A stretch of 58,900 bases of DNA, the filler included, from Sphacelaria rigidula (taxonomy: Eukaryota): NCBI GenBank assembly GCA_964200075.2. It is 7 parts of 7 records of this genome, joined end to end, with 100 filler letters (N's around TTAATTAATTAA, not from the genome) between each part and the next. Parts side by side here need not be neighbours in the genome. Positions count along the whole stretch, not along the records: positions 42,146 to 50,474 come from CAXNAA020011510.1; 6 more parts are not named here. One strand, given 5' to 3'. Each line of letters opens with the position of its first letter. Position 1 is the stretch's first letter. Position numbers and translations under genes: made by a program. Below are positions 2,016 to 58,900 of the stretch, in pieces. Under the pieces are notes generated by a model. That model searched no databases and was not told where the DNA came from. It saw only the letters and a program-made list of their open reading frames with translations.

Positions 2016-2949
2016 CCGCCTACGGCCGCAGATTTCAGCCCGGCTTGGCGTCTGACGGAACCTGATGAACCTGGGATTTATCCTGTTAGAAGTTTTTCAA
2101 CGCCCGTTTATGCCGTTGACCTTCAGTCCCCAGAGACTGGTATGACATGGGAGGACCTCGCCCTCTACCATTTTACGCCGATTTTGGTGGGTTAAAGCCC
2201 ACTGCCTCCGATTTTGTCGATTTCCGCACTTTGGGTACTCGCGCGAAGCTTTTCACAGAGACACCATCGGTCATCCGCCCAATCTCCGATAACACGCGCT
2301 CCCGGTCTGCCGCCCTCACCACGCCCCCTAGTGCCCCGCCGCCACCGATAACATCTACAGATGCACGAGCCACGCAGCACCGGTCCCACGGACCAGTAAG
2401 CAACGCTCCGCGAAAATTACTGGAACCTGCACCACGCGCCGCGAAGAATCTTCGCCACGCATTGCTACAACCCCGCCGCCCATAACGGCGCCGCCTACAG
2501 CTACCGCTCCCGAGCATGGAGCCGAGGACTCAGCTCCTGCTCCCGGGGCAGATATTGACGTCGGCATTCCTGCCCCGTCGCCCATTCCCCCGCTGCCTAC
2601 CCCACCATGTTTGGTCGCCTTTCCAGCGGAAGACCAACTACGCGAGTTTCTCGCCAGCTGCTCTCACCGTGATTGGGCCCGCGAACAAAACGCGGAACCA
2701 CTACGTCGCGCAGCCATCCAATACTTACAGTTTGACTGCCCAGTCCCTTTTCCACCCGCCATTCTGGCCCCGGTTGGCACACTGCCACCCCTAGATATCT
2801 CTGACGTATACGAACTCGTGCGTAAAGGCACCATTTTCACTACGGATGAAGGTGTACAACTACTCGTGCGTCGACCCACGCCTTTGACGGGCGCACTTTC
2901 CGTCTCGACTACGGGGCGCCACGCACGACTCCTCAATGACGAACCAACG

Positions 2950-4165
2950 CGCATTCATGTCCCATTATTAATGCACCCCTGGGTCATTAAAGGCTGCCAC
3001 ACGGACTTGTCATGTCACCTTGGCGTCACTCGCACCTTAGCGCTCTTAGAACACTCCTACTGGTGGGTTGGCATGGAAATTCCCACCCGCTTCTGGATTC
3101 GGCGGTGCTTCAAACGCCAACCTCGAAAAACTTCACGACAGACAGTACGCTGGCCCGTCATCTCTATGAGACACTCCAACGCTCCGGGCCACCTTGTGTG
3201 CATTGACTACTTTGGCCATCTACCGATCACAGGTCGCAGCAACACCTACATCTTACTCTTCACTTACCGCTTCAGCCGCCACGCGTCCATGTACGCGGTA
3301 AGCGCTGCAGATTTCACTGCCATAGGAACGACCGATATATTGGTCCACGATTACACTAAGCACTACGGTTGCCCGAAGCGACTCCTTTCAAACAGGGGTC
3401 GGCAATTTTGCTCAGATCTCTCTGATGAGCTTGACAAGCCCCTGGGCATCCGCAAAATTGCCACGAGCGCCTACCACCCTGACGGTAACGTTGGTACCGA
3501 AAGAGTTAGTCACACCAAGGCTCAGATACTCTCTATGGTTGTCAATGACCGCCAAAATGCCGAGGACCTACACCTGTCGCACATCATGTTGTCCTACAAC
3601 AACTCGGTTAACGCCGGCACAGGCTTTTTTCCGAACGAACTCCATCTTGAACGTTACCCTCGGCTCCCCATCGCCGTGTTTGAGCGACACACGTTCTATG
3701 GCCACCACGGATTGAATCAGGATCATATATGCTATCACCAGCTAGCGCATTCACGAGAACGCGAAGCGTTTACCCTCGTGCGCGAACAACACGCTATCAA
3801 TACCTCGCGTCTTGAGAGATCTAGCACTGCTCTCTACAACCTCATGCACAAGCGCCCCAACTGGAAAGTTGGTGGGTGGGTTTGGATCTACAATGGTTTA
3901 TCGACCATCCGCCAAGGCACCAGCAAGGAAGCCAACGAAACAATTTTGAAGACAAAATTGCCCCTCAATTGGACAGGGCCATTCAAGATCCTGACAGTCG
4001 GACCATCGCCATCATCACCGGATGTTAAACCCGTTGGTGACAAACTGCTCTATCTCGACCTGCCACTCGACCTCCAGGGCAAGGACACCAAACCCCGCGT
4101 CTCCGTGGTCCGATGCGAACTCTGCATGAACCCGCATGATACAAGCGACATGCCCAAGTACCTAT
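2950..4165 (+). pseudogene. Gypsy integrase (inactive)
   Basis: CH..SCHLGVTRTL..YWWVGM zinc-finger region with the second Cys lost, CIDYFG, SNRG (catalytic D replaced by N), SAYHPDGNVGTER, and GPF motif WTGPFKI. Confidence 0.92.
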
Positions 4166-4422
4166 TGGCGATGTCTTCGGAGAGCGTATTGGGAACAAGA
4201 ATCCGACCTTCAATAGCATCGCCGTGCAATCCTCCTGTACTGGACGCAATCCCAGCATCAGCATCTTGCTCACAACAAGAAATAATCCAATATCCGTCGT
4301 GGTGCAGCAGCCCGCGAACTTCACCGCCATCAAGGAGTACGCTTCGTCGCCGATGGCTACGAACTTGTACCCAACAAGCCCTGCAAGGCAAAGTTCTGCA
4401 AAGTTCTACGCAAAAACAACGA

Positions 4423-4623
4423 ATACTACCCAAGGGCAGCTACCTTTGGTTGAAAGGCAGCGACAACCCCTGGTGGTTGGGTCAGAACCACCTCGCTAAC
4501 GTGGTTTCTGCCGACACGTACATCGTGCGCTTCATCGATGACCCTGGACCCATCCAGCACAAGCTCCGACCAGCACGATACACCACTAGCTCATCTGCCC
4601 CACGCGGATTCTGGTGCTTTCAG
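4423..4623 (+). other. PWWP/Tudor-like (Royal family) module at the end of Gypsy Pol
   Basis: ILPKGSYLWLKGSDNPWWLGQ...TYIVRFIDDPG resembles the PWWP pattern G-x-x-V-W-x-K-x(3-4)-P-W-W-P...Y-x-V-x-F. Confidence 0.55.
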
Positions 4624-5603
4624 CGACTACTACGAGCCACCGGCCATCTACGACTACTGGAGCTCTACTACTCCGTTTTTGGCTGGCGCTCGATCTCATT
4701 GGATCATCGATTTCAGACTTTGATTCCCTTGCTTCCGACCAACATGCGTTGGTCGCTACTGATCTTGCTGCTTTTTTGTCTCTGGAATCCCCCAGGTGAA
4801 AGCTCTGCTTCCTGTTGTACCTCCCTGGTTTCCTCCTTCGTTTTGCTATGACGCCGAAGCAATTTGTGCTTCTTCGTTGATCGCTAGCACGCAGAAGCAG
4901 TTTGTGCTCCCGCGTTTCGAAGCAGTATTTTCTGCTCCTCGCGTATTTGCTTCCCTTATTTTGACGTGTTGGAGTGTGGGTACGGGAGTGCTTCGTTAGG
5001 TGTGCCTTATTAGCCGCTCATGACTCTATGAGGAAAGGAAAACCTCAATTAACGTTACTTTTGAGGATGAATCCTCGCAGCTGCAATTAAGGTTTATCTG
5101 GGTGGGTTAGTGTCATGAGGAGCATATTAGCCTGTTGTCATGCGGGCTCAGATCCGTTGACGGGCCTAGCTAGATTGCATGGCTTTCAGGTTACTTCAAG
5201 ACGGCAGATCTGTTCAGAGTTGGTCAGATACGAGTCAAGAAGAGACGGGATCCCCCCGCACCTCGATTTTCTAGGGGGAGCTGTGCGCAGCAATATAACA
5301 TGCCTGCCGGCACATGAGAAATTGCGTACATGCTCGTAACCTGCATGATGCGAGTCTCTCGAGAGATTGGTAATCGCCGAACGAGGACACACAAAGGACA
5401 CAGGCGAGGAGCTTCCTTTCTGTGGTTGCTTCTCTCTCTGGTGATATCGTCATCGACACGCGTGTACACCACATTCGTTCGGTGCACCTAGCCACAACTG
5501 CTTCACTGCTGCAGACGTTTGGGGGGAAATATGGTTTCGCCCTGTGTAACTGTTTCGTTGAACCTCATTTTAGAAATCAAACCCATTCTCCAGGATCCAC
5601 TGT

Positions 5604-5880
5604 AAATACTCTACTCAAATTTGGGGCAGATTGAATATGACCGCAAATACTCTACTCAAATATTGAGTAGTTCGAGTACGGCCTCAAACACTCTATTGAA
5701 TATTTTAGTAGGTCAAGTACGGCCTCAAATACTCTACTCAACTTTTGAGTAGTTCGAGTACGGCCTCAAAGACTCTACTCAAAAGTTGAGTAGATCGAGT
5801 ACGGCCTCCAATACTCTACTCAACCATCGAGTATGCACTCTCAGTAATACTTGAGTATAGAGTATATCGCTTGGGTATGA
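5604..5880. repeat. 41-bp tandem array with internal hairpin, block 1
   Basis: Unit AAATACTCTACTCAAnnnTTGAGTAGnTCGAGTACGGCCTC starts at 5604, 5645, 5686, 5727, 5768 and 5809. Confidence 0.95.
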
Positions 5881-6297
5881 TAAGCAACCGTGACCGTCGG
5901 CGACTTCGTGACGTCACTTCACAGACTATGTTGAATACATGAGCGAACGATGGCCATCAATTAGATGAGAGGCGGTACGTCACGGGCTCCAATGAGTATG
6001 AGCGAATGATGACCATAATAAAAAGAAAAACGCGTGCAGGTGAATGGGCCTACCTGCCCCAGCTCACCTGCTCCCACCCGTGGCAGTACATACTTGACAC
6101 CTCTCCATAACATGGCAGTACATACTTGATACCTCTCAATAACCCCTTCGATATCACTCTCAGTAGAAAGCACTACTCGTCATCATTGAGTAATCGAGTA
6201 GACGCGTTGTCGGCGGGTAGGTATTATCAAAATGAGCGACTGTATTGGCCGCACATGTGACTCCTTCATGGGAGAGTCGGCAATGGTACATCAGGTC

Positions 6298-6710
6298 CGG
6301 CCTCAGATACTCTACCTAAGTTTCGGGTAGATTGAGTATGACCTCAAATACTCCACCCAAATTTTGAGTAGGTCGAGTGCGGCGTAAAATATTCTACTCA
6401 AAATTTGAGTAGATCGAGTACGACTTCCAATACTCTACTCGAATATTGAGTATCCACTCTCAGTAATACTCGAGTATAGAGTATATTACTTGGGTATGAC
6501 CTCGAGACTCTACTCAAAGTTTGAGTAGATCGAGTACGGCGTCAAATATTCTACTCAAATTTTGAGTAGGTTGAGTACGGTCTCAAATATTCTACTCAAA
6601 TTTTGAGGAGGTTGAATACGGCCTCAAATACTCTACTCAAATTTTGAAAACTAAAAGTATGACCCTTCGAAAATACTGAGTATTGAGTATACTCTACTCG
6701 AGCTGCCCTG
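6298..6710. repeat. 41-bp tandem array with internal hairpin, block 2
   Basis: About 9 further units of the same repeat. Includes the variant spacer CACTCTCAGTAATACTyGAGTATAGAGTATA also found at the end of block 1. Confidence 0.95.
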
Positions 6711-7135: not shown

Positions 7136-8329
7136 TAAGAATTCGGTGCTACGGTTGTTGTACAGGCGGTCAGGGTCAATATCGCGGTGAGGTTGAACCT
7201 GCTTTCGAAATGTCGCCATTTTTGTTCAAGTGGTTGGGACCACATAAGCTATTTCGCACAGTGTCATGAGGTGGAGAGGCGGTTACAGCATCTCTTTCCC
7301 AGACGCCTAGATCACGTGTTTTGTATAGATCAAGGATGTTTCCGTAGAGGAACAGTCATTGAGGATCTTGAAGTTGTCGGGTTTGACTAGTAGGTGGGTC
7401 GGATTGATGTCCCCCAGCCCCTTGAAGCGGTAACGTCTCGGCTGTAGATAGAGACTCGGCATGGGACTTGATCGTGTCCTTGCCTACGTTGCTCACTCTA
7501 TCGAGCTGGGACATTCTTCTGCATCAACCGCTACTTTTGCCATCTGGTGAACACGAGTGAGAGCTACAAGGAAGAATTCAAGCGGCGATAAACAAGTGAG
7601 AACAAGCCTGTTTGATCAATAAGCACGTACATCTATTGTTTCACAGGCAAAGTGATGCATTGGTCAGGCGTGCAACATAGCCTCTAGATGGGTTGCATTG
7701 TGTAGGCAAGGCATCCTAGGATCCTCTATTACAGCTTACAACGGCTACACTTATAATGCAATACCTCCAATCAAGGGTAGATCTTACCTGTCGAGTCCGA
7801 TCAGCTCTGCAGAAGGGCGGTACGCAATGAGCACTGTGTATAGCATGTGGATCGATCCTTGGTGAAGGGTGGGTGGCGTCGTATTCAGTGTTCAGACAGT
7901 GGTCGAGTGCAGTTCATTATCAAGTGGCGAATATTGCTTTCAGAGATCGTTTGGGGTTTGTTTTTCTTCTGAGCGGATGGGGGTCACAGGCAGTCGCCTA
8001 TCCCATGTTTTAGTATCTCATCCTTGAGCGGGTTAAGGTGTCAGGGTCCGCATTTGAATCACTTCATAGTCTTCTCTACAGGATCATTATTGATCCTGTA
8101 ACTTCCCCCCCAATAGATTCGCCAAGTGTTTCACTAGACATACAACAGAGGATTCTATAAAATGAGGTTCATCAATGAAATGAGGTTCGATCTCGAAACA
8201 GTACTTTCTCCACGCTTTCAGCGATGGTGCCCAATGACTTTCTTGTCGGCCTAATGCCCCTCGATCGCGTAGATACTTCTTCAGCGCATTTTGTCGACTC
8301 TGTGAGCTTACAGCGCTGTCCGAAACCGC

Positions 8330-10088: not shown

Positions 10089-11167
10089 CACGAAGTAGTT
10101 ATCCTAAATGTCCCGAGTATCTTGTTACTCAAGAGGAAGGCTGTCTCACCGCGGAAACGATTCTTGAACCGCCCTTCAGGGTTTTCGCAACGTTGAGCAA
10201 AATATTTTCATCGTGCAGTCAGGTACACGTTGTGCAGCATTCAGTAGATAGAGTGCCGTACGATTCAAGAGTAGGTATTATATGGTCGGCCGTTTGCGAA
10301 GGGATCTACGGTTCCAGCCCACTTCACGGTGGTATGTGCTACGAGATGCCTCGGCCCGAATCAGGACACTTGATTCACTTTATTATCACGTATTTGATCT
10401 CCAGCGATGTTCGAACACGCAGTTCTCATGGTACCCCCGATAGCTTCGGTTCGAGCTTTTCATATTCTATGCTGGGACGGTAAGATCAAGAGTTATGCTC
10501 CAGGTCCGGGCTGTGTGACCGGTGTGCACCACAGGAAGGGTCATTGCACCGCTGACTTATGTTGCCCGTCATGGCGAACACCCCAAAAAATACAGCCTGA
10601 CGACCCTTACACTTGGTACTTCGTGATGGGGTGTACTTTCCACATTTGGGACATTTCACACGTTTTTTGGTTCCCCAAACAGGGACTATCGCCATCACAC
10701 GTCGTGGCCACTTTGCATCGTCCCGCCGAGGAGTCTAGCCTCTTTTTCAGATTCGCTTCGCTCCAAGTTTTCGAGAATGACCTCTTCTGGGCGAGAATAC
10801 GACTGGGGGGGAAAATGCAGTGCGTGCAAACAGAGGATCCTGGAAAATGGGGTTGAACATTGAAATGGCTCTCAAATACATTCCGAAAATTCTCACGTTT
10901 TCGGCAATAGTTTTGCCTGAACAACCAACTGAGGACTTTATTGTCTGTTGAAACTTTCCTCAGCTTGCCTTCTCACGCATGGTTGCTCCGGTGTCTGAAG
11001 CCATTTCTATATATCTCACTTTCGTACATTCGAAACGGCGCTCACCAGGTGAAGGAAGTCGCTTTCATCGGATTCCCTCGTATTTGAAGAACGTGATGCT
11101 GGGGGGCTTTCCGAGCCCGAGGAAAATTCGCAGACGGCAGGAAGATTTCCATCTATAAATTCTCCGG

Positions 11168-13356: not shown

Positions 13357-13863
13357 TTATGTGTGTACATTGATTCCAAGACCGGAACAACAATGCGCAA
13401 CAAGGAAAGCTCAGGGAAGTTTCAACGGACATACAAAATCCTCAGTTAGTTGTTTCTGCAAAACGTTTCCCGAAAAAATGTGAATTTTCGAAATGGGTTT
13501 GAGCCCCATTCAATGTTCGATGTTCAGCCACATTTTCCCGGTGACCGATGTTTTTTTCTCCGCTAGACTTGCATTTTTTGCGGGGCACCGGTCATCAAAC
13601 TCGGAGGCCGGTCAAGTCCAGTGAAACTTCTGATGTTTCGCTGGACTTGGCCCATCTCCGAGAAAATGAGCGCTCTCCGAGAAAACCGCAAGTTTTGCAC
13701 ACTCTGGACGATGGACACAATAATATTCAATTGCTTCAGCAATAGACACAGGAGAAAACCTATCGATATATATATAATCGAACAAGATAGATGGTGAAAC
13801 ACATCTATTGATATGTATTGTAAGGGACAGTAGATGTTGCAATAGTCGATCGATATCCCATAA

Positions 13864-14214
13864 CGGGGGATTCTATAAAGTGAGGTTGATCAATGAAATG
13901 AGGTTTGAGGAGGCTAGCCAGAATGTGACAAAAACCCGAGGGAAGTACCGTCCGCAAGTGCCTTCGATCATTTTCGGGGAGAGGGGGGGGCGTACTCATT
14001 TGTTGCTTGCCTTAGTCGTTTGATTATTGACCTTTCGAGACGGGGCGTGGTTAATGGTCAAACGACTAAGGCAAGCAACAAATGAGTACGCCCCAACCCC
14101 CCGAAAATGATCGAAGGCACTTGCGGACGGTGCTTCCGTCGGGTTTTTGTCGCATTCTGGCTAGCCTCCTCGAACCTCATTTCATTGATCAACCCCACTC
14201 TATAGAACCCCCTG
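13864..14214. mobile_element. Near-perfect palindromic MITE, ~165-bp arms
   Basis: 13864-14030 is the reverse complement of 14050-14214. The same terminus (GATTCTATAAA.TGAGGTT.ATCAATGAAATGAGGTT) also occurs at ~8146-8190. Confidence 0.9.
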
Positions 14215-14269
14215 TTCTATGGCAGTTACAACAGATGAAGATCACTCGCTATCGATGGAAATCGTGCAC

Positions 14270-15785: not shown

Positions 15786-16410
15786 CGAGGGTGTGAAGTT
15801 TTGCCAAAAAGCAGCCCTGTGGCCACCGGGAAAACGCGCAGGTGTGCTGAAACCATTTCATCGAGTACAGCAAGGCATTTCAAGATTTCGAAATCTGCCC
15901 AGCTTTCTTTTCGGGCCTAAAATGACGAAAAAACTCCAAAAAGGCAGTTTTCTAGAGTTTTTATTGCCACAAGAAGCTTCAATAAAGAAAAGTGTTGAAC
16001 ATTGGCGAAATCACAGCAGTATGAAGGTCTCTGCGAGCCGCTCATTAACCGCAGAACTGTTCCAACACACAAAAACAACTAGTGAGATGAGCTGATACTT
16101 TCCTATACCCCCCCAACAGGGTGCAGCGCGGTCCCTCAAGGAAACGCCAACACTCAGCAACTTCATCGGTGCTTTGATACCCACCACATCATCATTTCAA
16201 CACATCTGATTCGGTGTCAACTCGTGCAAAAACGGTAAAGAACCTTACTCTGACTCCTGACTCCAGGGAGATACTTTCAAGATGTGAACCGACCTCATTC
16301 TCAGAAGTCTGACCACGTCTGGCAATATAGTGACATGAATGAAGAGTACCCTTCCTCCCGCGAAAGTTGTGATGTACTGCAGAGGTGGCTTGAATCATCT
16401 GGGTGAACCA

Positions 16411-16758
16411 GGGGAGGGGGGGGGGGGGGGGGGGTACCCATTTGTCGCTTCTTTTAGTGGTTTGACCATTGACCCCGCATCCCTTTCGAGACGGGCAGGG
16501 AAGAAGTCAGCTAATTGAGACCTCCAACATTTAGGTGCTCATTACGTTTCTTCCGTACATTACACAACAAACCATTTACATAACTTTCCCCCGTCCTGTT
16601 TCGCCGTCTGTGGCCACCATCTATCTCCTAGTATAGCCATCGTTCTTTCGCTACCGTCTAATGCATCAAACGATAAGTGAACCAGGGGTGTGCTCATGAT
16701 CATGCATGCCATAGTCATCAGACCATTGACCTCGCATCCCTACAATGCCGGGACGGAG
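16411..16758 (-). mobile_element. Poly(C)-ended short elements, family A (16411-16676) followed by family B (16685 to gap)
   Basis: G-run + TACCCATTTG..TAGT..TTTGACCATTGACC. GTGAACCA is duplicated at 16403-16410 and 16677-16684. Homologous to 48681-48945 and 43765-43840. Confidence 0.8.
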
Positions 16759-25485: not shown

Positions 25486-26440
25486 CCCCTTTGGGACCGG
25501 GTCTTCAAAACGACCAGTGAGGCTGGTCAGGAATAAGGTGTCTGGCGTCTGCACGAAACAATGGCATTTTGCTGAGGGTCCGCGTATGCAACGGCAGGGT
25601 TATGACGAAGTCGAAAGTTTCATCCAACATATTTTCAGGTGCAGGGTGCGCATTACATGATGAACATCTGATGTAGTGAGCAGTAGTATTTGTTGCCGTA
25701 CAATGAAGAACTTTCAACAGAATGCGGCGCCCGGCGGGCCGTCCGCCACTTGTGGCTTTGGATGATATTATTGTCTGCATCACCTTTCCACAAAGCCCTT
25801 TGTGGGTGGGATGCACCGCCATTTCCCTCCTTGTTGCAAGCGGCACAACACCTTGGAAGGATATGGGCGTTACGGTGCACATACATACAACAGTACAAAA
25901 CAGTGCAGGACGCCTCCCCGAATGCAGCAGCAGCTGCCGGTGCATACTCCCTTGCGCGTTCAGGGCAAGTCTCAGCGACGGAAATCAGCTGCCTATACAC
26001 AGCTTGTTCATCCCCGTACACAACATACATGTTCATAGTGTTCTGCTAGTCATCGGCAAAGGGATGAGCAGAATTCATGACGGTAGCTCCTTTTGTATTT
26101 CAACGGCTCACCTGGGTTTAGTGCCTCGTGAAGGTGACCACATTGTGGCATGTACACTCCTTCATACCCTGGACAACGGAATACACGGTCGAAAACTGTA
26201 CCGCGCACAGTATGGAATCTATTGTCTATTGCAACAGACAATAGATTCCATGCTGTGCGCAGTACAGTTTTCGACCGTGTATTCTATTGTCCAGGGTGTG
26301 CACTCCTTCCCGGTTTTTTCCACTCCACCCCGTCTTGGTGTAATTACTACGTTTTAGTGTAGGTTGGCGACCCAAAAAATTCCTGTGGAATCCCAGCAAC
26401 GCTATACTGAATGCAAGTAATACGATAAGGCATGCTCCGA
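25486..26440 (+). mobile_element. piggyBac-type non-autonomous element, copy 1 (right end missing)
   Basis: TTAA|CCCCTTTGGGACCGG start. Collinear with 32785-33515 and 46102-47106. Interrupts a CGAGCACTCGAG repeat (~25360, 25405, 25448, resuming ~26550). Confidence 0.8.
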
Positions 26441-28500: not shown

Positions 28501-28671
28501 AGTAGAAAATTGCGAATTCGCCTGCAAGTTACAAATCTGCTTCTAGGCTGGCCCAACCTGTACGTGCAAATAATCATGTATTCCGTGAAGTAATGGTATG
28601 GTTGATGACGGGCGGGTGTGCTCGTATCCTCCACATTGAACCATCATGGTGAAAAGAGGAAATACAACGGA

Positions 28672-28702
<31 letters not shown>

Positions 28703-28867
28703 ACTTCCTGAGCGGCGCCCCGCCCTCTCCCCAAACCACCCGGCGCNNNNNNNNNNTGTTGTGTGACGGGCGGGTGTTCTCTTTTCCCCCCCCTTGAACC
28801 CTCTTTGGTAAAAAAGGTAATAAAAAGGTTCCCCCCCCCCCCCCCCAACACCGCCCTTGGTGACTGA

Positions 28868-31680
<2,813 letters not shown>

Positions 31681-32784
31681 ACCTTTGAATTTTGGGGTCT
31701 TGGTGGTGGCTAAACTGCGATCAAGAGTGTTGGTTTCGGAACGAGGAAGCTGAGGAGTCGAATGGGGGAGGGGGGGGGGGGGGGGGGGGGGGGTTGCCCG
31801 CCCCATAGTTTCCGCTTTGCCCTTTATTTTGTAGGGTACGCCTTTGCTCACGCTGTCGTGGTCAAAGGATGNNNNNNNNNNAGGGGGCAGGAGTGGGGGA
31901 GGGAGGGCTGGAGGCGGGTGCTCTGCCGGGGGCCGGGGTGGGAGTGACCAGCGGGATGGGCTTGCCCGCCCCATAGTTTCCGCTTGTCTCGTTATCTTGT
32001 AGTGTACGCCTTTGCTCACGCTGTCGTGATCAAATGATGGATGTTTCTTTCGGGCGGGCCTGCTACGCTTTCCGATCCAATTGTGTGGAACAGGGAGTGG
32101 TCAGTCATGCGGCGGAGGAAGCCATGAATTTTACTCATATTCAACATTAGATTCGACTATCGCAGCTGTTGATTCTTATCGGTTCGCGGCCGGCGGGGGA
32201 CCCAAAACCATGTCTGCGTCAAGTCGTGGGGAGGATTTTGGCCTGACATGTTCTTGTGCAACACGTGGTAGGATGGTCGATGATTGGTCCGATGGATCGG
32301 CTGCTCTGTTTCATGAGTTGAGAGACATGTTCAAGTCGTATTCTGAAGTCCGAAATGTGAAAAGTGTGTCGACCTTACACACGTTTATTTCGCCACCGCT
32401 AATCGGTGTGTACTTGATGCACGGGTTTGCTGTTGATGGTGACTGATATTTTAGCAGGGGAAAACCACTTACTTGAGCCTCATCCACACTCATCTATCCC
32501 TTTTAAAGCCAGTAGTCGACCTAAAGCCAAGAGTTGAAGATCGTTTTGTGCTCTCATCTGCACAGTCAGTCCCTTGCGTCGCCCAAGTTTGCTCAGGCCG
32601 AGCACAACGTGAGAGCTTTTCGAAGTAGTCAACGACTGTGTTTCATTCTTATGACTGAAGCTTTTTGCGGACACATTGTCACAGTCACTCGAAGATCCCC
32701 GAGCTCTCTTCAATAACACCCTCCTCATGACCGTGGTACCTCTACCGTTGTCTCCCGATAACACGAAGTAAGCGCCCTTCTCCA

Positions 32785-33515
32785 CCCTTTTGGGACAGGG
32801 GACCGGGCCATCAAAATGACCAGTGAGGTTGGGGATATGTGTGGCTTATGCACGAAACAGAGCGAAACCGAAAGTTTCATCCATTCTATTTCCGGGTGCA
32901 GCGCGCACATGAGGTCATTTACATTCGATGTAGCAAGCAGTATGGCTCGCGGTCAAGAGCATCCAACAGGATGCGGCGACCGGCGGACCGCCCACCAGTT
33001 GTGGCTTTGAATGATACCTTTGTCCTCATCAACTTGCCACACAGCCCTGCCTGAGCGAGGTGGGCCCCCATTTTCGCCCTCGTTGCATGAAACAAATTTT
33101 CTTGAATGGATGTCAGCGTTGGGGCGCATGTACACAACAGTAAAGTGCAGTACAAAGCGTTACGCCTCCCCGACTGAAGCAGCAGCTGCTGCTGCGTACC
33201 CCCTTGCACGTTCTGGGCAGTTCTCAGCTACCGAGATCCACTGCCTAAATACCGCTTCTTCATCCCCGCCCACTACTTACATGTGGTCCGCCGACTGCAA
33301 GTTATCTGCAGGGTGATGGCAAAATTCATGACATGAGTTCCTTTTGTCTTCCCAAGACCCACCTGGGTTTGGTGCCTCGTGAAAATCATCATACTGTAGC
33401 ATGTACATTCCTTCCTAGTTTTTCCGTTCGCCCGTGTTGGTGCAATTACTATGAAATTGTGACGCAATAAAACCACTGAAAAACTCGGGACCGCTTTACT
33501 GAGGGCAAGTAATAG
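32785..33515 (+). mobile_element. piggyBac-type non-autonomous element, copy 2 (partial)
   Basis: Collinear homology with 25486-26440 and 46102-46860. Confidence 0.75.
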
Positions 33516-43040: not shown

Positions 43041-43669
43041 GATAGTTGTAAAATGTGTCAACCAGAGATATAATGTAGCCCAAGTCCGGTTAACCCCCCT
43101 CGATTCCACGGTCATGTATGATGATACTGCAGGCTAGTGCCATGCATCAGGAATTCTTACTCGAATTGTAATGCAACACCAATTAACGATACTGTCCAGT
43201 GGAGTGGAACTGGGAGTTTTTTTCGTCATACCCGAAACATGAGAATGAGGCAGTGTCTTCACAAACTATTTCTCGATCGGAATGGTGCGGCGAAAAAGAA
43301 AATGAACAACTCCGATCTGATACGTATAGAGTTCAGGACATTTCGTCATTCATGTCCACGTCATTTATCTTGAAATATCGACCTATAAAATGGGAAATTT
43401 TGTTTTTTCCATAGCACGTTTTGATCGAAAAACACTGTGCTCAAACACGCCCTGACGGCGGCTATCGCACAGTTGAAGAAGGGCCGTCGCTGATTTACAG
43501 ACACATTTTAAGCCGCACACCGCGAGGGTAGTCCATCTGGGTCATGCGTACTTTTTTCAGGTAAAGTTGATGCCGATTCAACGTACCTCCTCTCGCCGTT
43601 TAAGGGTCAATTTGGGTACATATCTGAGTACGATACAAATAAGAAAGGGTATAAGATTAATTGTTTTCG

Positions 43670-44305
43670 CATATTTAAGGGGTTTTGATCTGGGTTGGTT
43701 GATTGATTTAGTTAAACAGGTCTGATGGAAGGGTTGGGATGGGATTGGGCTGGGTTGGTTGTGTGGGGGGGTGTACTCATGATGATGCATGCCATAGTCA
43801 TCAGCCCATTGACCTCGCATCCCTACAAGGCCGGGACGGAGCACGCCGGGTTTTTGCCGGACCAGTCTCGCTCTCAATCTCCAAGCGCGAAGCGCCATGG
43901 TGTGTTCGGCGAGCCGCATGAAGGGTGAGCTGCATCCTGCTAAGATTGTTCGGCCCGAAGCCTACTGGTCATCTTGCATTTGGATGACAACCTACGACGA
44001 GTTCCTTTTTTTCCTGGTATCGCCACTTCCAGAGACAGCGGTGGCTTATGCACTGCCTCATGGGTGTCTGGGTTGGTTGTAGGGGGGGGGGGCGTACTCA
44101 TTTGTTGCTTGCCTCAGTCGTTTGACCATTGACCCGGAGCACTGGGTTGGTTGTGGGGGGAATTGATTGTCTTGTTTTGTTATGGACAAGGGCAAGACAA
44201 CGAAGGAAATCCCACAACCAACGCAATCCCATCCCAACCCTTGCATCAAACCTGTTCATCTGAATAAGCCAAACAACCAATCCCCAACCTCCCCTCAAAC
44301 ATATA
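43670..44305. mobile_element. Foldback element hosting two poly(C)-ended insertions
   Basis: AACAGGT.TGATG.AAGGGTTGGGATGGGATTG at 43714-43747 is mirrored at 44226-44257. Confidence 0.8.
43763..44141 (-). mobile_element. Poly(C)-ended short elements: family B (43763-44067) and family A (44081-44141)
   Basis: CTGGGTTGGTTGT is repeated at 43750-43762, 44068-44080 and 44142-44154, and each insert begins with a G-run. Confidence 0.85.
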
Positions 44306-46101
44306 AATCATCATTATCGCCCCCTCGGCCCAAGAACTGTGTTTTCGATTTCATATTTGTTCCAAACCTTACCGTATACTCTCACTGGATTGTCGTCCCT
44401 CGCCCCGAAAACTCTGTTTTCAAATCAATTGGTGTTTCAAACTGTAGGGCAGACGTGACTGACACGGACTGCACGTAAGAACAGCGTCCACTCTGACGAC
44501 CGCATACAACCGCACGTTATTTTGCCGCCTTTGTTATGTCGAAATGTGGTATGATGGGAGTAATGATCACATACCGGTTCGCCCTCTCCGAGGTTGTGAC
44601 ACGCTTTTCCCCATGGCCATCTCCTGCCACCCGAGTAAATTAATCTCCGCGTTATGCATTTATGTCCCCAACCATCGCTTGTGTCGGTTGGGACAGAAGT
44701 TCGTAAATTTGTACTTTTATCACTTGTATCTGTCGTTCCCACGACTACTTGCAATCAACGGACGATCTGACATGCTGTCGCCACCTCGCAGTACCCTCCC
44801 CATCCCATCGTTCCTTCTCATGCCCCTAACACAGCCTACAACCACGTTTCCTACACATCACTACACTTGCCGCTGCACATATATATGTCGACCCCATTGA
44901 TGTCCATTAACGCCCCCGATCGAGTGGCCTGTGTGGTGGCTGAGAACGGTTTTCCCGTGAAGGTAGTAGGTACCTCCCAAAAGGGGTCGACGGGGTCATA
45001 CCTCCGTCTTCCTGAGTGCTGCTACTGCGACGCTGAGGACGCCAATGAGGTGGCATCGGATCTAAAGAGCATGACAGATCACGTTAAAATCCAATTTATT
45101 CGTGTTAAAACTCACTTAACTTCGTCAAACTCACAATGCTCTCTCGGGTCACACTGACCAGATCCAGATATCAGGGTGGGCGTACCGTCTTTCTCCCATC
45201 CTCAAGTACAGTGTGGTGCGGCTATCTTCTTGGTCAAGCGAGTTTTTCGTTCTGTTTCGCCTCTGCGTCGAAGCCACTTCAAGTTTTACCCCTTGAACCC
45301 CCCGGCAGCTACCGGTGTATATTCGGGGTTGAGCCGCGGACGGCGTGATATCTCCACGCCAACTACACATAACACCGCAAAGGTCACTTTGATTGTCGGT
45401 CTGAGACATGTATACTTCGCCCTCCACATTTCTCGATGTATTTCGGCTCGCGCCTTGCACGGTGGCTCGCCGAGAATGACTACCTGTTATCGGTACTTCT
45501 CACACGAGAACATGGATGGCGACGAAATTTGCTCAAGACTTGGAATATTTTTCGGTCGTTTCTTATGGGCTGCAACATGGGTGTACTTTGCCTATCCCCC
45601 ATTCAGCAGAGTCCAACAGGTCAGTTTTCTCATGCAATACTATGACCCCGCCACACACCTTTAACAGTAAACTGGAGCAAGATTGGCACTTGTTGACATA
45701 CAGATATGGAATATGTGTGGAAGCGCAGCGGCGAGCGTGTCCTTCCCCCCCCCCCCCCCCGCCCTCCTCGTTCGCCGCCTCCATCCCTCCGCTTTCACCA
45801 GCTGCTGTTTGCTGCTGAACATTCGGGAGACATGGCCTGCAACGAAAGACAATTTGCCCCCCCATCCATGTTGAGCTGCAATTCTTTTGGTAAAAACTGT
45901 ATTTCGCCAGCAATCATGTCAAGCGCCCGGACGACCGACCAGCAGTCATTTTCGCCAACACTCTAGCCATTCCCCAAGGATCGGCGAAACTGTCAAATCT
46001 ACCAGTCGTCCCACTGACCCTAGAAGCAAGGGACACTACCTAGCTGTAGGTCAGGAACTCCCCCGCCCTGCCCTCCTCGGAGAGCCCTCGAAGTTGATCA
46101 A

Positions 46102-47106
46102 CCCTTTTGCGACCGGGCCTCCAGAACGACCAATGAGGCTGGGTAGGAATGATGTGTCTGGAGTCTGCACGAAACAGACAGTGGCGTGTGAAAATCCGCG
46201 TATGTAACCGCAGGGTTATGACGTTATGACGAAGACCGAAAGTTTCATCCAATCTATTTTTAGGTGCAGGGTGCGCATTAGGTAGTGTACATCTGATGTA
46301 GCAAGCAGTATGGGACGCGGTAGAGAGCTTCCAAGAGGATGCGGCGNNNNNNNNNNGGCTTTGGATGATATTATTGTGCCCATCACCTTGCCGCACAGCC
46401 CTTTGGGGTCGGGGTGGGCCGTCATTTCCCTCTTTGTTGTATGCGGCAAATTATCTTCGAAGGGTATCAGCGTTGCGGCGCGCATGCGTACAGTATAGTA
46501 CATACAGTACAGAGTAGTACGCCTCCCCGATCGCCGTCGCAGCTACAGCAGCATACTCACGCACACGTTCTGGGCAGTTTTCAGCTACCGAGATCAACTG
46601 CCTATAGACAGCTTCTTCATCCCCATCCACTACATCGGCAGAGGGATAAGCAGAACTCATGACGGTAGCTCCTTTTGTCTTTCCACAGCCCATCTGGTTT
46701 TAGTGCCTCGTGAAAATGACTATATGGTGGCATGTACACTCCTTCCCCGTTTTTCCGCTCCACCCTGTGTTAGTGTGATGACTACGTCTTAGTATAGAAT
46801 TGTGACCCCAAAAAACTCCGGAAAAACTCCGGAACGCTATACTGGGTGCAAGTAATACCATACAACCAAGTTCCGACCGCCCTGCACATGGAAACTCGGT
46901 AGGGCTTATCTGGGCCAGGGATAGGACCCCCACACGATCTTTGCACTTGCATGACACTCGCCAACAATCCCCGGGCTGGTCGTTCGGGTTTGGTCGATAA
47001 ATTTCGCCTCGCCGTGATTGGGCAGGTCGCTCGAAGACTTTTTTATTTTATCATTTCACTAACACAGGGTCAACCCTATGTTAGTGGGGGGTCCGTCACA
47101 AGAGGG
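46102..47106 (+). mobile_element. piggyBac-type non-autonomous element, full-length copy (~1 kb)
   Basis: TCAA|CCCTTTTGCGACCGG ... CCGTCACAAGAGGG|TTAA. TIRs match and the flanks are TCAA/TTAA. Confidence 0.85.
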
Positions 47107-48124
47107 TTAAATGGCGTTAGCCTTTTAGCACCAAACTTTGCTTCAGTACAGTTGAGCAGCTGACCGTCCCACGGGACGATTTCTTCGAAGGGGATGTTAT
47201 CTCAGGTGTTTGGATCGTGTAAGCAGTACTAATATCAAGGGATGAAATATGGACATATTCACTTTTCATTATGGTGGGGCAAGATGGACCCCCGGCGCGC
47301 GTTGTAAGCCGAAATGGAACAAACACTTCTGTGGCTCGCGTCCAGCATTGCACCTGCCCAGCCTCCGCTGCTTAGTGTGCAAGGGTATGGGTTCGCGAAG
47401 ATTGTAGGGAAAGTTGAGGTATCGCTACCAGACCGCAGAAACACGTACAACAGCAGAGGTTGTAGCGCGGTGTGTGGGCTCGTGGGTTGATGGGTGGCAC
47501 AGTACACAACAAAAGATAGCGGTATGGTTGTATGGGGCAGACTGTGTGACGCAGCTTGTGCCTGCCTGACTTGGCTGACAGACTGATGAACAGTTGCGGT
47601 GGCTTTGCCAAGGCATAGAGGCCACCCAAGAGGCGAAGTGGTGATGGCGACATCAGACTGGGAGAGCTACTGCCACTGCCTGCAACATGGCTGTACAGTA
47701 GACGCATTCAAGCGTACATGCACACCGTGCGACCAGTTCCCGCCGTACAAGTCATGACGGCAGGCACAAACCAACGAACAACGAACTGGCCGCAGCTGGA
47801 ATAACGAGAGTATGCTCCTATGCTCTCGTTCCCTGTTCTATACAAAACCCAAGACTTTCCTGGATGTGAGGCAGGCCTTGTGGTGAAAACTACTCCGACC
47901 TTCTGCGTATACTGTTCCCACCTGACGGGGTTGAGCGCTCAAAGGGTCAACTGTCGCATGCCTTGAACAGTTTGATAGGTTACCTAATGACATGACGTGT
48001 ATACTACCATACCATCACCGACATGTATGTGCAGGCTTGGTACAGCAGCCGATCTTGACGATGTGCTCCTATTTCACGGCGGCAATATCAACAAATCATG
48101 CGGTGAAATCACGGCGTTTCTCTG

Positions 48125-49043
48125 GGGGGCGGGAGGGCGGGGTGTACTCTTGATCATGCATGCCGTAGTCATATGACTACTGACCTCGCATTCCTACCAA
48201 GGCGGGACGGAGCACGTCGGGTTTTCGCCGGGTCAGGCTCGCTGTCACTTGCCGGGCCAGGCTCGCAATCAATCACCAAGCGGAATCGCTGTGATGTGTT
48301 GGGCTAGTCTTATGAAGGGTGAGCCGTATCCCCCTTGAATCGTTCGGACCGAAGCGCACTGTTTTCTTGCATGCGGATGACAGCCTCCTATGAGTTGCTT
48401 CACTTCTGGTATCGCCACTTCCAGAGATAGCCACGCGTTCCACATTGCCTCGTGGATGTCTCACCATTGATACTCCATGTAATATGATCATCCCCTCTCC
48501 GCGGAATGGAGGTTCTCCCACCCCGCACAACATGATCTAGCTCGACCACCATCATGGTTTCCGAAAATACGCAAGGGCGAAAATCCCGGGTAACCTCATC
48601 GCCTAGCTTACGCAGTGAGAGGCGTGTTTAACAGCGTCGTTGCCAGCCGACGCCAACCCTCCGGGAATCGCGTTTCTCTGGGGGGGGCGTACTCTTTTGT
48701 TGCTCGCCTTGGTCGTTTGACTATTGACCACTCATCCCTTTCGAGACGGAGTACTGTTCCTACTTCTAGTGGAGGCGCCTCCAACATTTGGGCGCTCATT
48801 ACATTTCTTCCATAAATTACACAAGAGCCTGCCACATATTTCATCCTCTGTCTGATTCACCGTCTGTGGCCATTATCTATCTCTTAGTATAGCCATCATC
48901 CTCTCGTTACTGTCTAATATATCAAACGATTCCATGCCACCTTCGGTTGCTTCTCTGGGGGGGGGGGTACCCATTTGTTGCTTACCTTAGTCGTTTGACC
49001 TTTAACCACGCATCCCTTCGGAGAAGGAGCACCGTTCCTACTC
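48125..49043 (-). mobile_element. Three serial poly(C)-ended inserts: B (48125-48669), A (48681-48946), A (48958-49043)
   Basis: Duplications GCGTTTCTCTG (48114-48124 and 48670-48680) and TTGCTyCTCTG (48947-48957 and 49044-49054), each followed by a G-run. Confidence 0.85.
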
Positions 49044-49814
49044 TTGCTCCTCTGGGGGAGACATGAAGCTTTTCACATCATTCACGATATTTTCTCGGTA
49101 TTGCCGCTGTTTCTGTGTGAATGTGATCCGTTGACATGATTGTGTGTACCGCAGACGTCAATCTACTAACGGCATGCACAAAAAAAAGTGGCGAAGGAAT
49201 GGTGCTCGGTTCCATATTGAGTGGTTTTTGTTGTTGTTGTCTGCTTCCGCGTTGTCTCGTGCCGATGTAGATGGCAGGAGACGCTCAAGTGGAGGAAAGA
49301 GAACGACGTTGACGGCGTCATCGAGAAGCCGCAGCCAAGATTCGCCGACTGCAGGTATGCGTGTGTCTCGAGAATGCATGAAATATATATATATATATAA
49401 AAGCACAAGCTTTCTTACTTTTCATCCCCTTTGTCGCAAGCTGGTCTTGTCGGGACAACAGTGTCGTCGGTTGACATGCAGCCCGGCATTTGGGGGGGAA
49501 GGGGAGGGGCAGGGCGCGGTGTTTTTCGGGACGGTAGGTGCGGGTCCTTCTCAGGAACCGTACGCTTTCCGAAATATTCACCGAGCGATAACCGATTGGT
49601 TGGTTCTAGTGGAGGCGTCGAACTACCGTCCGCAATGTGTTCTGAGTGACCACGTCGGGTTTTTTTGCGCATAATCTCGAACCCCCCTGGTCATACATGA
49701 GCGTTGTCTGTCCACCGGAAACGAGCAGTATTATGTCGAACACCGCATCAAAATCCCGCCTTATTGATGTCTTACCTCTTGACCGTCGTTAGGCTGCATT
49801 ATCTGGGTCCTTAA

Positions 49815-49951: not shown

Positions 49952-50474
49952 TTAACACGGAGTGCTGAATCGCAAATTATGCTGACTCAACAGATGGCCC
50001 ATCCAAGCGGTTAAGGGGCCAATACCTTGTGGCCGCCAGGGTGAGCCATCTGGGTCTTCTAGTCATTTTCCAGACGAGAACGTAATGATGCCGATTGTAG
50101 CAGATGATCACCCGTGGCGGCGGTCAAAGACGAACGTGTACGCGAGTTGGTGGCTAAGTTTCACGGCAAACACATACTCCTCTCTTGCTGAACCCTCACC
50201 CCAACCCCAAACTGACCCTAACTCAAGGCTTGCCGAGAACCCTCGGGTATGGGGGTAGAAAAGGTACTCTGAGCAAAAGAATGCGATTGCAGAGCTCAAA
50301 TCGACGCCGCAGGCACCGGTTTGGGCAAAAACCCGTTTTGCGTACGCAACGTAGCGAGCAAGCGCGTGAGACTCTCAGCGCCCCCCCCCCCTCCCAAATT
50401 TAGCCTGGTCCGGCGAGAACCCAGCGTGCTCCGTCCCGGCTTTGCAGGGGCGGACCCCCGATGGGGTTGGCGTC

Positions 50475-50574: not shown

Positions 50575-50626
50575 AGTTGAACCTCATTTTTTTTTTCAAC
50601 CCCATTTTCGAAAATCGGCTGTTCTA

Positions 50627-53399: not shown

Positions 53400-54453
53400 C
53401 CCTTCTTCACCGTCCAAGGTCCCGTATACCTGTCATACTGCAGTTTCATGCCCCTGCCATCCCGGTATGTGGAACTTTCGCTGTCCCTCACCGTTACCAT
53501 ATCTCCTTCCGTGACCGACACGCCTGCTGATGGTCTCGAGATAGCGGCATTGCCTTTTCACGCGCCACTGCTTTTACCCCCTGCCTTTTGTCCAGCGCCA
53601 CCCTTTCCTCGGGGAGATTTTGTTTGCGCTGATCAACGAAGGCATCTAGCCCCTTGCTCGGTTCTGCTTCTTGTAAGAGGAAAACGAGGGAGTCTAGCGG
53701 TGTGCGCGGTTTGCGGCCGAACAGCAGCTCGAAAGAGGATATGTTCGAGGATAGCGATGTGTCCGGCAATGTGCGCTTGATCCACTGAGCGGGTGAGACA
53801 TACTCCTCCCACCTCTGGGGCCACAGCCTACATAGTTCCGACAGCATATCTAACAGCCATCCCCTGAGTCTCTCAACTGCTCCTTGACCACGTCGGTGAT
53901 CCGACGGCCCGAAAGCGATGTCCGCCTTCAACCACCTGCACAGATGCGTGACCACATCGGCCCTGAACTCTTTGCCCCTGTCGCAGCGGAGCTTTTGTGG
54001 GACACCAAAAGTTAAGCATAACTCTGCTAGGATGCATGCAATCTCGTCAGCTTCTTTTGATGGTAAAGGAAACCCGAACGGGAATCGGGAGCGGCGGTCA
54101 ACTACAAGCAAAATGTGCTTGTTGCGAGAGTGCGACATCACATCAATGGTTAGCAAGTCGATTTCCAACTCGTCCCATGGGTTTACAGTGCGTCCCGGTC
54201 TCATCGCCATTTGACGGCTAATTGCCTTCTTACGCCTTCTACCGCTGCACGGCAGCACATACTGCCTGGTATCACTCGTCATCGTAGGCCAATGGAAGCG
54301 GTCACGCATCAGAGCAAGGGTGGCGCCTACTCCAACATGTCCGTGGAATGTATGCACGAGTGCTAACAGGTCAGCTACCATCGTTTTCGGAACGGCTAGC
54401 ATCTCCTTGTTATCGACTCCTCGGTACCATACTCCATTAGCCGCAGGGCTCAC
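53400..54453 (-). pseudogene. Gypsy integrase
   Basis: VHTFHGHVG, RFHWPTM, LEIDLL, VVDRRSRF, LRCDRGKEF, QGAVER, FELLFGRKPR. Confidence 0.93.
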
Positions 54454-54539
54454 CTGTGCAGCTTGGGGCAGAGACCGCGGCTACAGAACAACCTTATGAG
54501 TGCCGAACAGTTAGTGATCAACGTGAACCTCCTACCGGC

Positions 54540-57827: not shown

Positions 57828-58600
57828 GTGTACGTAGGACCAAGCGCGGGGGAACTATCAGTTGCCAGCAGCGCCGTCGTGCTGCAACACCGGATGTGGT
57901 CGACGCTGCGTGTGATGGACCAGAGAGTCTTGAAAATGCCGGAGGATGAACACGTCAACGGTAGGCGGGTGACACAGACAGATAGGTGCTCCGCCCACCG
58001 TCGCAAACTCCTAGTCGAGCTCCTGGCAGAAACCAGTGGAACGTTCACATCTCTAACTTCAGCTGAGCGAGTAAACGTTCACCACATCACGGGCGAAACC
58101 GATACTGTCCCACACGAGTCCGTCATTGTGGCCGACCGGCTATGGATTCTCGTCCGGGCGGAAGTGATGACGAACGGTGCCACCAATTCTATGCATGCTG
58201 CTCTCGACTCCATCACTCTATCACCCAACGAGTCGTGGAGTGCGGCAGCGGAACGAGTGTTGTTAGCATTTCGCGCGAGCCTAGCAAACGCGGACCGGCC
58301 GTATAGTACCGAGGCCACGTATTTCTGGCGATTCATCTCCACCCTGCAGCTAAGTGAGCTCCACAATCGTACTATCAAGGTCGATCTACCTAACCAGGTT
58401 GATCGGCTAGGCCTCATGCCAATCCTTCATGAAAAGACGCACGTAGTCTGGGCCAGGTCGAAGCCTTCGAGGAGTGAGTGGCACAGTCCAATAGAACTAG
58501 CAATGCAGAGGCGGGGAGAAGTAGCGAAGAGTCTGTACCAGGACCTCATTCGTATCATGACCGCCCGTAACCTAGCATGGCGCGACCATAGCCACGCACG
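57828..58600 (+). CDS. Unknown ORF, possibly Gag capsid-like, opposite to the adjacent Gypsy element
   Basis: Uninterrupted ~260 codons, apparently helical. LDSITLSPNESWSAAAER resembles the Gag major-homology-region pattern. Confidence 0.4.
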
Positions 58601-58603
58601 CAT

Positions 58604-58900
58604 ATGGTGGCGCTCAGACGCAAAGTAGACGAGGAAGAACACCTGGAGATATACGGGTGGTTGAGAGAGGGGATAGGAATGATTGCATATTTGCATGGCC
58701 CAATGGACGCTGCGAAAAATATGAAACTGCGATTCGGGGTTGGGGACCCAGACCTGCCAGAAAGAAGGAAGAGATATACCAGTCGTCGAAAGGACGAGGA
58801 AGTAGATGGACAGCACTGCCTCTGTGGCAAAGCAACAGAGAGTAGAAGTGATATAGTGGCAGAATGTGAGCTACACAAGGAGAACTGGGACGTGCCAGAG
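58604..58900 (+). mobile_element. LINE ORF2 C-terminal fragment (5'-truncated), runs off the window
   Basis: Open frame MVALRRKVDEEEHLEIYG...YLHGPMD..KLRF.VGD.DLPERRKRY...CLCGKATESRSDIVAEC. This is a CCHC-type C-terminal finger with His replaced by Asp. Confidence 0.75.

Follow-up and report, generated by a model that had tools for sequence, protein, structure and literature searches.

Probable C-tailed LINE copies and a putative non-coding passenger stacked at G/C runs in a Sphacelaria rigidula assembly

Retroposons almost always end in a tail that is A-rich or made of short tandem repeats, and for elements of the L1 type the A tail is central to the choice of both template and target. LINE-1 and Alu carry a poly(A) tail and are inserted at a T-rich nick site. 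The microsatellite- and telomere-repeat-specific LINEs of the R1 clade (Waldo, Kibi, Koshi, Dong, TRAS/SART) have an endonuclease aimed at a simple repeat; they target di- to penta-nucleotide repeats, and most of them end in poly(A). In the Zepp LINE, as reportedly described by Higashiyama in 1997, every copy lies within the poly(A) stretch of an earlier one. The Zepp elements of Chlorella and Coccomyxa form clusters of nested elements (PMC3446292). Stringent-type LINE/SINE pairs, in which the two partners share a 3′ end, are exemplified by eel UnaL2 and its partner SINE (PMC3747384, PMC1636434); other LINEs are described there as ending in TAA or TGTAA repeats, which are thought to serve template slippage (PMC3747384). 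The 3′ UTRs of lizard and frog L1 elements contain poly-C tracts, yet these elements still end in poly(A) (PMC5381506). The literature searched yielded neither a LINE or SINE with a terminal C homopolymer nor a G/C homopolymer that is both target and tail, a result confined to published text, in which the spelling of ‘poly(C)’ may escape a search; consensi of this kind may already be annotated in repeat databases.

The stretch of Sphacelaria rigidula DNA analysed here, referred to as the window, is 58,900 bases long: seven pieces of 8,329 bp each (the last 8,326 bp), joined by spacers of the form N44-TTAATTAATTAA-N44. It is eukaryotic DNA and includes a CDC48-like exon at ∼28943-29120. Two families of short elements, A and B, end in C runs in this window. 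Very probably, A represents defunct, 5′-truncated copies of a LINE and B a non-coding passenger, both with C tails and both inserted by target-primed reverse transcription, with each insertion renewing the target. This reading develops the proposal of the first-pass annotation, namely SINE-like or LINE 3′-end elements with C tails that insert at homopolymers by target-primed reverse transcription, which is supported by a coding LINE, a shared 3′ module and the position of nine out of nine readable 5′ junctions beside C runs. The mechanism is taken from the established LINE model on the strength of the anatomy: the frame encodes an endonuclease and a reverse transcriptase, the 3′ end is fixed and bears a simple tail, 5′ ends are truncated, duplications vary in length, and one 5′ junction has an overlap of 2 nt.

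As in the UnaL2-type pairs, the last tens of nucleotides and a simple tail are common to an autonomous LINE and a short partner that is non-coding, and copies are 5′-truncated with variable duplications. Unlike in those pairs, where the tail is (TGTAA)n, (TAA)n or poly(A), it is here a C homopolymer; the LINE uses the shared module as coding sequence, with the stop 8 nt before the tail, and no Pol III head was found in B. The likeness to LINE-1 and Alu lies in a homopolymer tail, a target with the matching homopolymer, new copies that become new targets and variable duplications; the differences are that C/G takes the place of A/T, that at the one unambiguous site (43750) the primer strand is nicked 5′ of its G run, and that the LINE protein is by sequence no closer to L1 ORF2p than to R2. 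Like that of the repeat-specific LINEs of the R1 clade, the endonuclease appears to be aimed at a simple repeat. Judged by arrangement, the nearest analogue of the stacking is the nested Zepp clusters in Coccomyxa, where LINE copies likewise pile up at places in which earlier copies provide the target; unlike Zepp, with its poly(A) tails and a few large clusters on each chromosome, the stacks here are small, dispersed and C-tailed. On the literature alone, a C-tailed LINE with a passenger is an unusual variant of a well-known mechanism.

The cluster at 43750 displays the arrangement. The sequence CTGGGTTGGTTGT occurs as an exact match on the plus strand at 43750-43762, 44068-44080 and 44142-44154. 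A further copy, at 43690, differs by one mismatch, and four matches were reached in 0 of 100 shuffles. The first two exact copies enclose a B copy of 305 bp (43763-44067, sense on the minus strand, tail ...GAGTACA-C7-AC), which is 72% identical to a longer B copy at 48136-48459. The second and third enclose an A copy of 61 bp (44081-44141, minus strand, tail ...GAGTACG-C11-T), 96% identical over 50-53 nt to the LINE contigs L001 and L004 described below; it retains TGCTCCG and has lost 17 nt of the consensus by an internal deletion. The threefold repeat and the two inserts of ∼305 and ∼60 bp between its copies are as the first-pass annotation had claimed. Read on the minus strand, both inserts end in ...ATGAGTAC(A/G) followed by C7 or C11; read on the plus strand, each opens with a G run and then (T/C)GTACTCAT. 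Contigs of four public runs (X1, X3, X5 and X8, from three studies) were compared to 43300-44700, and both outer junctions of the stack are bridged: on the left, from flank into B, by an X1 contig covering 43525-43793 (0 differences) and X3 contigs covering 43665-43774; on the right, from the third duplication copy into the flank, by an X1 contig covering 44111-44700 (0 differences) and an X3 contig covering 44122-44700 (5 base differences). The filled junctions are thus also present in X3, a different study from X1, and the contig joints listed for the four runs include no empty allele of the site (the 43762/44155 joint).

The target itself can be read in the local foldback, which is imperfect, its arms being 82% complementary over 61 nt. 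In the opposite arm, on the minus strand, the junction at 44211-44225 is uninterrupted: CCCACAACCAACGCA pairs with TGGGTTGGTTGTGGG (15 nt, 93% complementary) and reads ...GTTGGTTGT-GGG.... A paralogous empty site therefore exists, with a short G run already present. The claim that this arm shows the empty state holds for the uninterrupted junction, and is qualified by the imperfect match of the arms and by the paralogous nature of the site. In the filled arm, G6 (44155-44160, plus strand) follows the nick site directly, and the paralogous arm has GGG at the matching place. A short G run that pre-exists at the target is what would be seen if the C/G runs were host homopolymer hot spots targeted by tail-less elements; at 43750, however, the inserts bring runs of their own (G7 and G11), a full duplication away from the host G6.

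Further A copies start in the window at 13983, 14045 (inverted), 16415, 48680 and 48957 besides the one at 44081, and B copies at 16685, 28852, 48128 and 50402 besides the one at 43763. A LINE coding fragment (58595-58900, plus strand; residues 1062-1163 of the LINE protein P0001, 70% identity) is cut by the window end. The first-pass count of about ten copies on three scaffolds is accordingly revised to six A copies, five B copies and one coding fragment, spread over four of the seven pieces. A fixed end on a run, next to a related terminal motif, had been claimed and is seen in all window copies with a visible end, the run following directly after the last element base; tail length here ranges from C4 to C19. 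Variable truncation of the other end is borne out in that A copies cover the last 50 to ∼330 nt, the internal 17-nt loss of the 61-bp copy being a departure from it.

The clusters at 16403-16758 and 48114-49057 show serial, duplication-flanked stacking like that at 43750. In the former, direct reading of the sequence gives the duplication GTGAACCAGGGG at 16403-16414 and 16677-16688 (plus strand) on either side of a 262-bp A copy (16415-16676, minus strand, tail C19-T), which is 79% identical to L004 4913-5165 and holds the LINE C-terminus in pieces. This copy is inserted at the tail of a B copy (16685-16758, minus strand, tail C4) that is cut by the piece end and is 94.6% identical to B at 43768-43841. 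In the latter, three minus-strand copies lie between nested GCGTTTCTCT(GGGG), TTCTCT(GGGG) and CTCT(GGGG): B-long, a B copy of ∼541 bp (48128-48669, tail C4-GCCCTCCCG-C6) with flanks GCGTTTCTCTGGGG at 48114-48127 and 48670-48683; A1, an A copy of 271 bp (48680-48950, tail C8, duplication TTCTCT(GGGG)) that encodes residues 1167-1253 of P0001 unbroken at 59% identity; and A2, an A copy of 93 bp (48957-49049, tail C11) that matches the LINE frame in tblastn and whose duplication CTCT(GGGG) has its second copy at 49050-49057. Duplications in the window measure 13 and 13, 8 or 12, 10 or 14, 6 or 10, and 4 or 8 bp, the alternatives arising where four Gs can be assigned to the tail or to the target; the variable length claimed earlier is confirmed, while the range of 7-13 bp gives way to one of 4 to 14. 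The duplications share the run-side boundary and differ at the far boundary, as expected with a fixed first nick and a variable second-strand cut. The junctions that can be read base by base number only about a dozen. The A copies at 16434-16499 and 48966-49033 both end in ATGGGTAC-Cn rather than ATGAGTACG-Cn, which removes the TGA stop, so that the frame of such a subfamily would read into the C run (proline codons); the shared ending may mark a true subfamily or reflect decay common to both copies.

Some head-to-tail arrays could have arisen in a single event, if the reverse transcriptase, on arriving at the 5′ end of its RNA, continued on the C tail of a second RNA. A B-like 5′ end of full length follows the LINE tail C13 in L004, with no duplication between the two; two plus-strand B fragments identified by sequence comparison follow C runs, at 28852-28941 (internal deletion, tail C7-T-C5) after C16 and at 50402-50449 after C11; and in many contigs B runs straight into a G run at position ∼43865. 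At 43750, 16403 and 48114, on the other hand, the duplication is repeated between the members of the stack, which one event cannot produce, and a duplication composed only of C would be invisible, so that arrays lacking a duplication also fit serial insertion. Template switching, unlikely on balance, may explain the arrays without an internal duplication; it does not explain the three stacks separated by duplications, for which serial insertion is the preferred reading.

The fragment at 28852 lies just before the CDC48-like exon. Within 28929-28960, its tail C7-T-C5 stops 5 nt before the ...CTACAG acceptor, and the polypyrimidine stretch of the intron end is thus supplied by the tail of a retroposon.

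Relatives of A with coding capacity occur outside the window. A scan of a metagenome collection with the shared motif GACCATTGACCNCGCATCCCT gave three marine contigs (L001, L002 and L003), and a protein scan of a prokaryote genome collection gave L004, a contig of 5,259 bp from a bin with a bacterial label. L001 runs from an unrelated flank through G8 into A sequence, and its opposite strand is an open frame of 1253 residues that continues to the contig end. In L004 the frame spans 1382 codons from stop to stop, encodes a protein 95% identical to that of L001 and ends in GAGTACG-C13, and L002 and L003 are 3′ parts of the same LINE with tails C11-G-C5 and CCT-C7. The L001 protein (P0001) has an AP-like endonuclease (Exo_endo_phos, E 3.1e-11, residues 64-285; Exo_endo_phos_2, E 9.2e-07) N-terminal to a reverse transcriptase (RVT_1, E 7.7e-33, residues 634-883), and the frame encodes a C-terminal CCHC motif of the form CxCx8Hx4C. 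The TGA stop lies within the terminal AAATGAGTACG, 8 nt before the C run (C8-C13 in L001/L004). An autonomous LINE with the same 3′ 60 bp, which the first-pass annotation had suggested, has in this way been found in L001 and L004, complete with an endonuclease and reverse transcriptase frame, the A-type terminal motif and C8 or C13.

With tblastn, the LINE frame matches the window at 48956-48696 (residues 1167-1253, 59% identity), 16670-16441, 49045-48974 and the fragment 58595-58900, the window A copies mapping to the last 24-87 residues of the frame, and at the DNA level these copies are 76-96% identical to L001/L004; A therefore consists of front-truncated copies of the C-tailed LINE. Among named species, the nearest relatives are in Ectocarpus sp. 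CCAP 1310/34: unnamed LINE-like proteins (P0004, P0010, P0018 and P0019) with 55-71% identity where they align, of which P0004 keeps the C-terminal peptide NAPSSRGRVVNG. This points, short of proof, to a brown-algal host or a related one. The C-terminal peptide NGAPSRKGCVVNG..., encoded by the 3′ module, is kept in relatives of 88%, 73% and 55% identity. A search of solved structures returned R2 (2.5e-22) and LINE-1 ORF2p (3.6e-21) as best relatives, to which the reverse transcriptase is by sequence about equally close; this search does not separate L1 from R2, and searches of a protein atlas returned generic families only. Viral contigs contained no relative of the LINE protein and no match to the motif.

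The contig L004, a eukaryotic LINE in a bin filed as ‘uncultured bacterium’, is likely a binning contaminant; the bin contains no further copy of the 3′ module and, besides L004, a single distant reverse-transcriptase fragment. Neither a 5′ end nor a duplication was located for the LINE in L004. At 429-520 on the minus strand of L004, ∼600 nt upstream of the LINE start codon, an antisense, diverged 3′ module has its own G run; it is a third, more divergent version, GGTGCTCCGTCTC...GGTCAATGG...CATCCA-C4TC4.

This antisense module upstream of the frame, together with the occurrence of GTACTCATTTGTTGCTTGCCT in inverted orientation at 13992 and 14089, could point to a DNA transposon or foldback element of which A and B are the ends and the terminal motif is the inverted repeat. 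Full-length copies with the motif inverted at both ends and a duplication of fixed length were suggested beforehand as the mark of such an element. Instead, duplications vary in length, every other copy has one fixed and one variable end, and the sole inverted A pair, two 3′ ends placed head to head at 13983-14102 (G8...C4AAC6), is the centre of a larger palindrome whose 126-nt arms (13862-13987 and 14091-14216, 91% complementary) include flanks and runs. The element encodes an endonuclease and a reverse transcriptase and no transposase, and self-comparison revealed no long terminal or inverted repeats within the part of the element that the L004 contig covers. The transposon reading is accordingly very improbable. 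The palindrome (13862-14216), with its two central LINE 3′ ends, is also a member of a foldback/MITE-like family with terminal inverted repeats of ∼47 nt (AACAGAGGATTCTATAAAATGAGGTT...), further found at 54-99, 5558-5603, 8144-8190, 10829-10875 and 50577-50622.

Family B is common to the LINE only over the last ∼70 nt. The shared 3′ module consists of (G/C)GTGCTCCGTC, a variable loop, GGGATGCG.GGTCAATGG, a hairpin that differs between the families and ATGAGTAC(A) plus the run. The remainder of B has no similarity to L004 and no long conserved frame. Of the Pol III head or reverse transcriptase/endonuclease frame that the first-pass annotation proposed to look for, the frame is present for A in L001 and L004; for B no Pol III head was found, with 0 matches in Rfam at gathering score over the whole window, 0 tRNAs in ARAGORN and, in Rfam at E up to 5 on 47900-49200, one snoRNA match at chance level (E 0.21). 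The 5′ end of B-long (48128-48669) recurs in L004 directly after the LINE tail and in the same register (36/50 identical, with a score of 40, whereas none of 300 shuffles scored above 27), so ∼541 bp may be the full length of B, its start agreeing within 1 nt at the only two loci available. B carries the last ∼70 nt of the LINE and the C tail, and so would presumably be copied by the LINE's enzyme, and it may depend on the shared 3′ module for mobilisation; from its sequence it is best described as a SINE-like passenger of the LINE, not a proven SINE.

A proposed fold of the 3′ module, closed by a GUGCUC/GAGUAC stem and containing two hairpins, one of CGUCUC-GAAA-GGGAUG and one variable, is compatible with all copies; one of its pairs is changed on both sides. 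Covariation over its 16 pairs is not above that of shuffles (91.7% of cells are paired, a value reached by 453 of 500 shuffles), and the folding energies of the module are not unusual (z -1.67 to +1.74).

Beyond the window, the run stands at the same base of the element in five assemblies (the window, two ENA metagenomes, one JGI metagenome contig and the bin contig). It follows directly after G(A/C)(G/C)TACG in four of four metagenome or bin copies, as C8, C11-G-C5, CCT-C7 and C13, and the flanks of these copies are unrelated. Among the four public runs, contigs that diverge just before 44082 number 599, 572, 125 and 53 in X1, X3, X5 and X8, with a long G run as consensus and variable sequence beyond it; those that diverge before 43765 into a long G run number 233, 201 and 54 in X1, X3 and X5, the nearest loose end in X8 being at 43768 (9 contigs). 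After 44134, 564, 447, 197 and 105 contigs of the four runs continue with LINE consensus that is absent from the 61-bp copy. On the A/B part, 86,834, 63,898, 15,285 and 4,620 records are placed in X1, X3, X5 and X8, and the summed word depth there reaches ∼10^6 to 2x10^7, as against ∼67 in the unique flanks in X1, a sum that is not a copy number. Runs containing the window sequence include algae, protist and marine metagenomes.

The window is enriched in homopolymers, whichever the base (61 runs of at least 7, compared with ∼11.5 in shuffles): there are 25 G/C runs of at least 7 (∼6 in shuffles), six of them 16-30 long, and 36 A/T runs of at least 7 (∼5 in shuffles), only one of which reaches at least 16. 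This general enrichment, like the G run already present at the 43750 target, would suit pre-existing host hot spots. The run nevertheless follows directly after the last element base in all visible-ended window copies and in the four metagenome or bin copies, and hundreds of contigs of X1, X3, X5 and X8 likewise show it; with flanks unrelated in all copies, a run that belongs only to the target is unlikely, and tail-less elements at host hot spots are an improbable explanation. The G runs might also be artefacts of sequencing or assembly, such as poly-G read ends, given long G/C runs within 45 to ∼80 nt of two of the three N10 gaps and, in short-read contigs, ‘opposite strand’ joints at runs that resemble graph artefacts. 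This possibility is negligible: the run is bracketed by duplications and unique flanks, and with the run at the same base in five independent assemblies the artefact reading fails.

Nine 5′ junctions can be read (A 44081, B 43763, A 16415, A1, A2, B-long, B 28852, B 50402 and the B-like copy in L004), and all nine lie 0-14 nt downstream, in sense orientation, of a C run of at least 4. At five junctions this run is the tail of an A, B or LINE copy already in place, and at two it is a host run; at the remaining two (C16 and C11) its origin is uncertain. The suggestion that the elements generate the poly(C/G) tracts is partly supported, in that 7 of the 25 window G/C runs of at least 7 directly abut A/B tails. 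A pattern of Cn-N-C4-6-flank is present in 8 of 14 tails; as proof of a G-ended primer it was rejected, single substitutions in a long run looking alike.

In the proposed cycle, the sense strand of the LINE ends in ...AAATGAGTACG and a C run takes the place of A. The endonuclease would nick the strand that bears the G run, at or beside a short G run, and the 3′-OH would serve as primer for reverse transcription, with the RNA's C tail as template. The resulting cDNA, which would start with a G run, would recreate the target, and the next insertion at the same nick, with the second-strand cut at a variable distance, would build up stacks, of which B-A (at 43750) and B-A1-A2 (at 48114) are examples. 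Slippage of the reverse transcriptase, a mechanism proposed for repeat-tailed LINEs, probably maintains the length of the tail. The primer strand at 43750 reads ...GGTTGT^GGGGGG and the inserts begin with A-G11 or GT-G7, so the primer is not G-ended; with the nick 5′ of the G run, there would be no pairing of tail and primer at this site. In the other clusters four Gs are readable either as primer and duplication, with the nick 3′ of the run, or as tail. Tentatively, the C run could be made anew at each insertion, by telomerase-like reiterative copying of a few terminal C, or added to the RNA by cellular C-tailing, while the G run would seat the template. Were the run made anew, the LINE would be a self-reinforcing generator of G/C homopolymers, writing its own landing sites across a large algal genome.

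On this tentative reading, it would also be the first retroposon system in which C:G replaces A:T in the recognition of target by tail. A C-tailed LINE and its passenger, present in very high numbers, provide a natural experiment on whether the matching of tail and target holds in general or is peculiar to L1. Such elements would also explain the abundant long G/C runs of this genome. These runs impede assembly, can fold into G-quadruplexes and occur within introns, as with the copy just before the CDC48-like exon. For annotators of brown-algal-type genomes, the signature is GAGTAC(G/A) followed by a C run.

Several other features were observed in the window. Two small repeat families, unrelated in sequence to A and B, likewise end in long runs, one in C30 and C16 and the other in G24 and a degenerate G run (28606-28702, 28764-28846, 31770-31871 and 31953-32039); the C tail may be common to more families of this genome. 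The three N10 assembly gaps are at 28747-28756, 31872-31881 and 46347-46356, and two of them are 45 to ∼80 nt from the C30 or G24 runs, which is consistent with homopolymers breaking the assembly. Remnants of gypsy-type LTR retrotransposons, with Integrase_H2C2 and rve frames, occupy 2332-4851 (plus strand) and 53494-54480 (minus strand), and a 41-bp tandem repeat forms arrays at 5567-6705. A repeat of ∼600-800 bp is present three times (25612-26427, 32867-33414 and 46235-46862) at 67-88% identity and contains a frame of 216 codons without a Pfam match.
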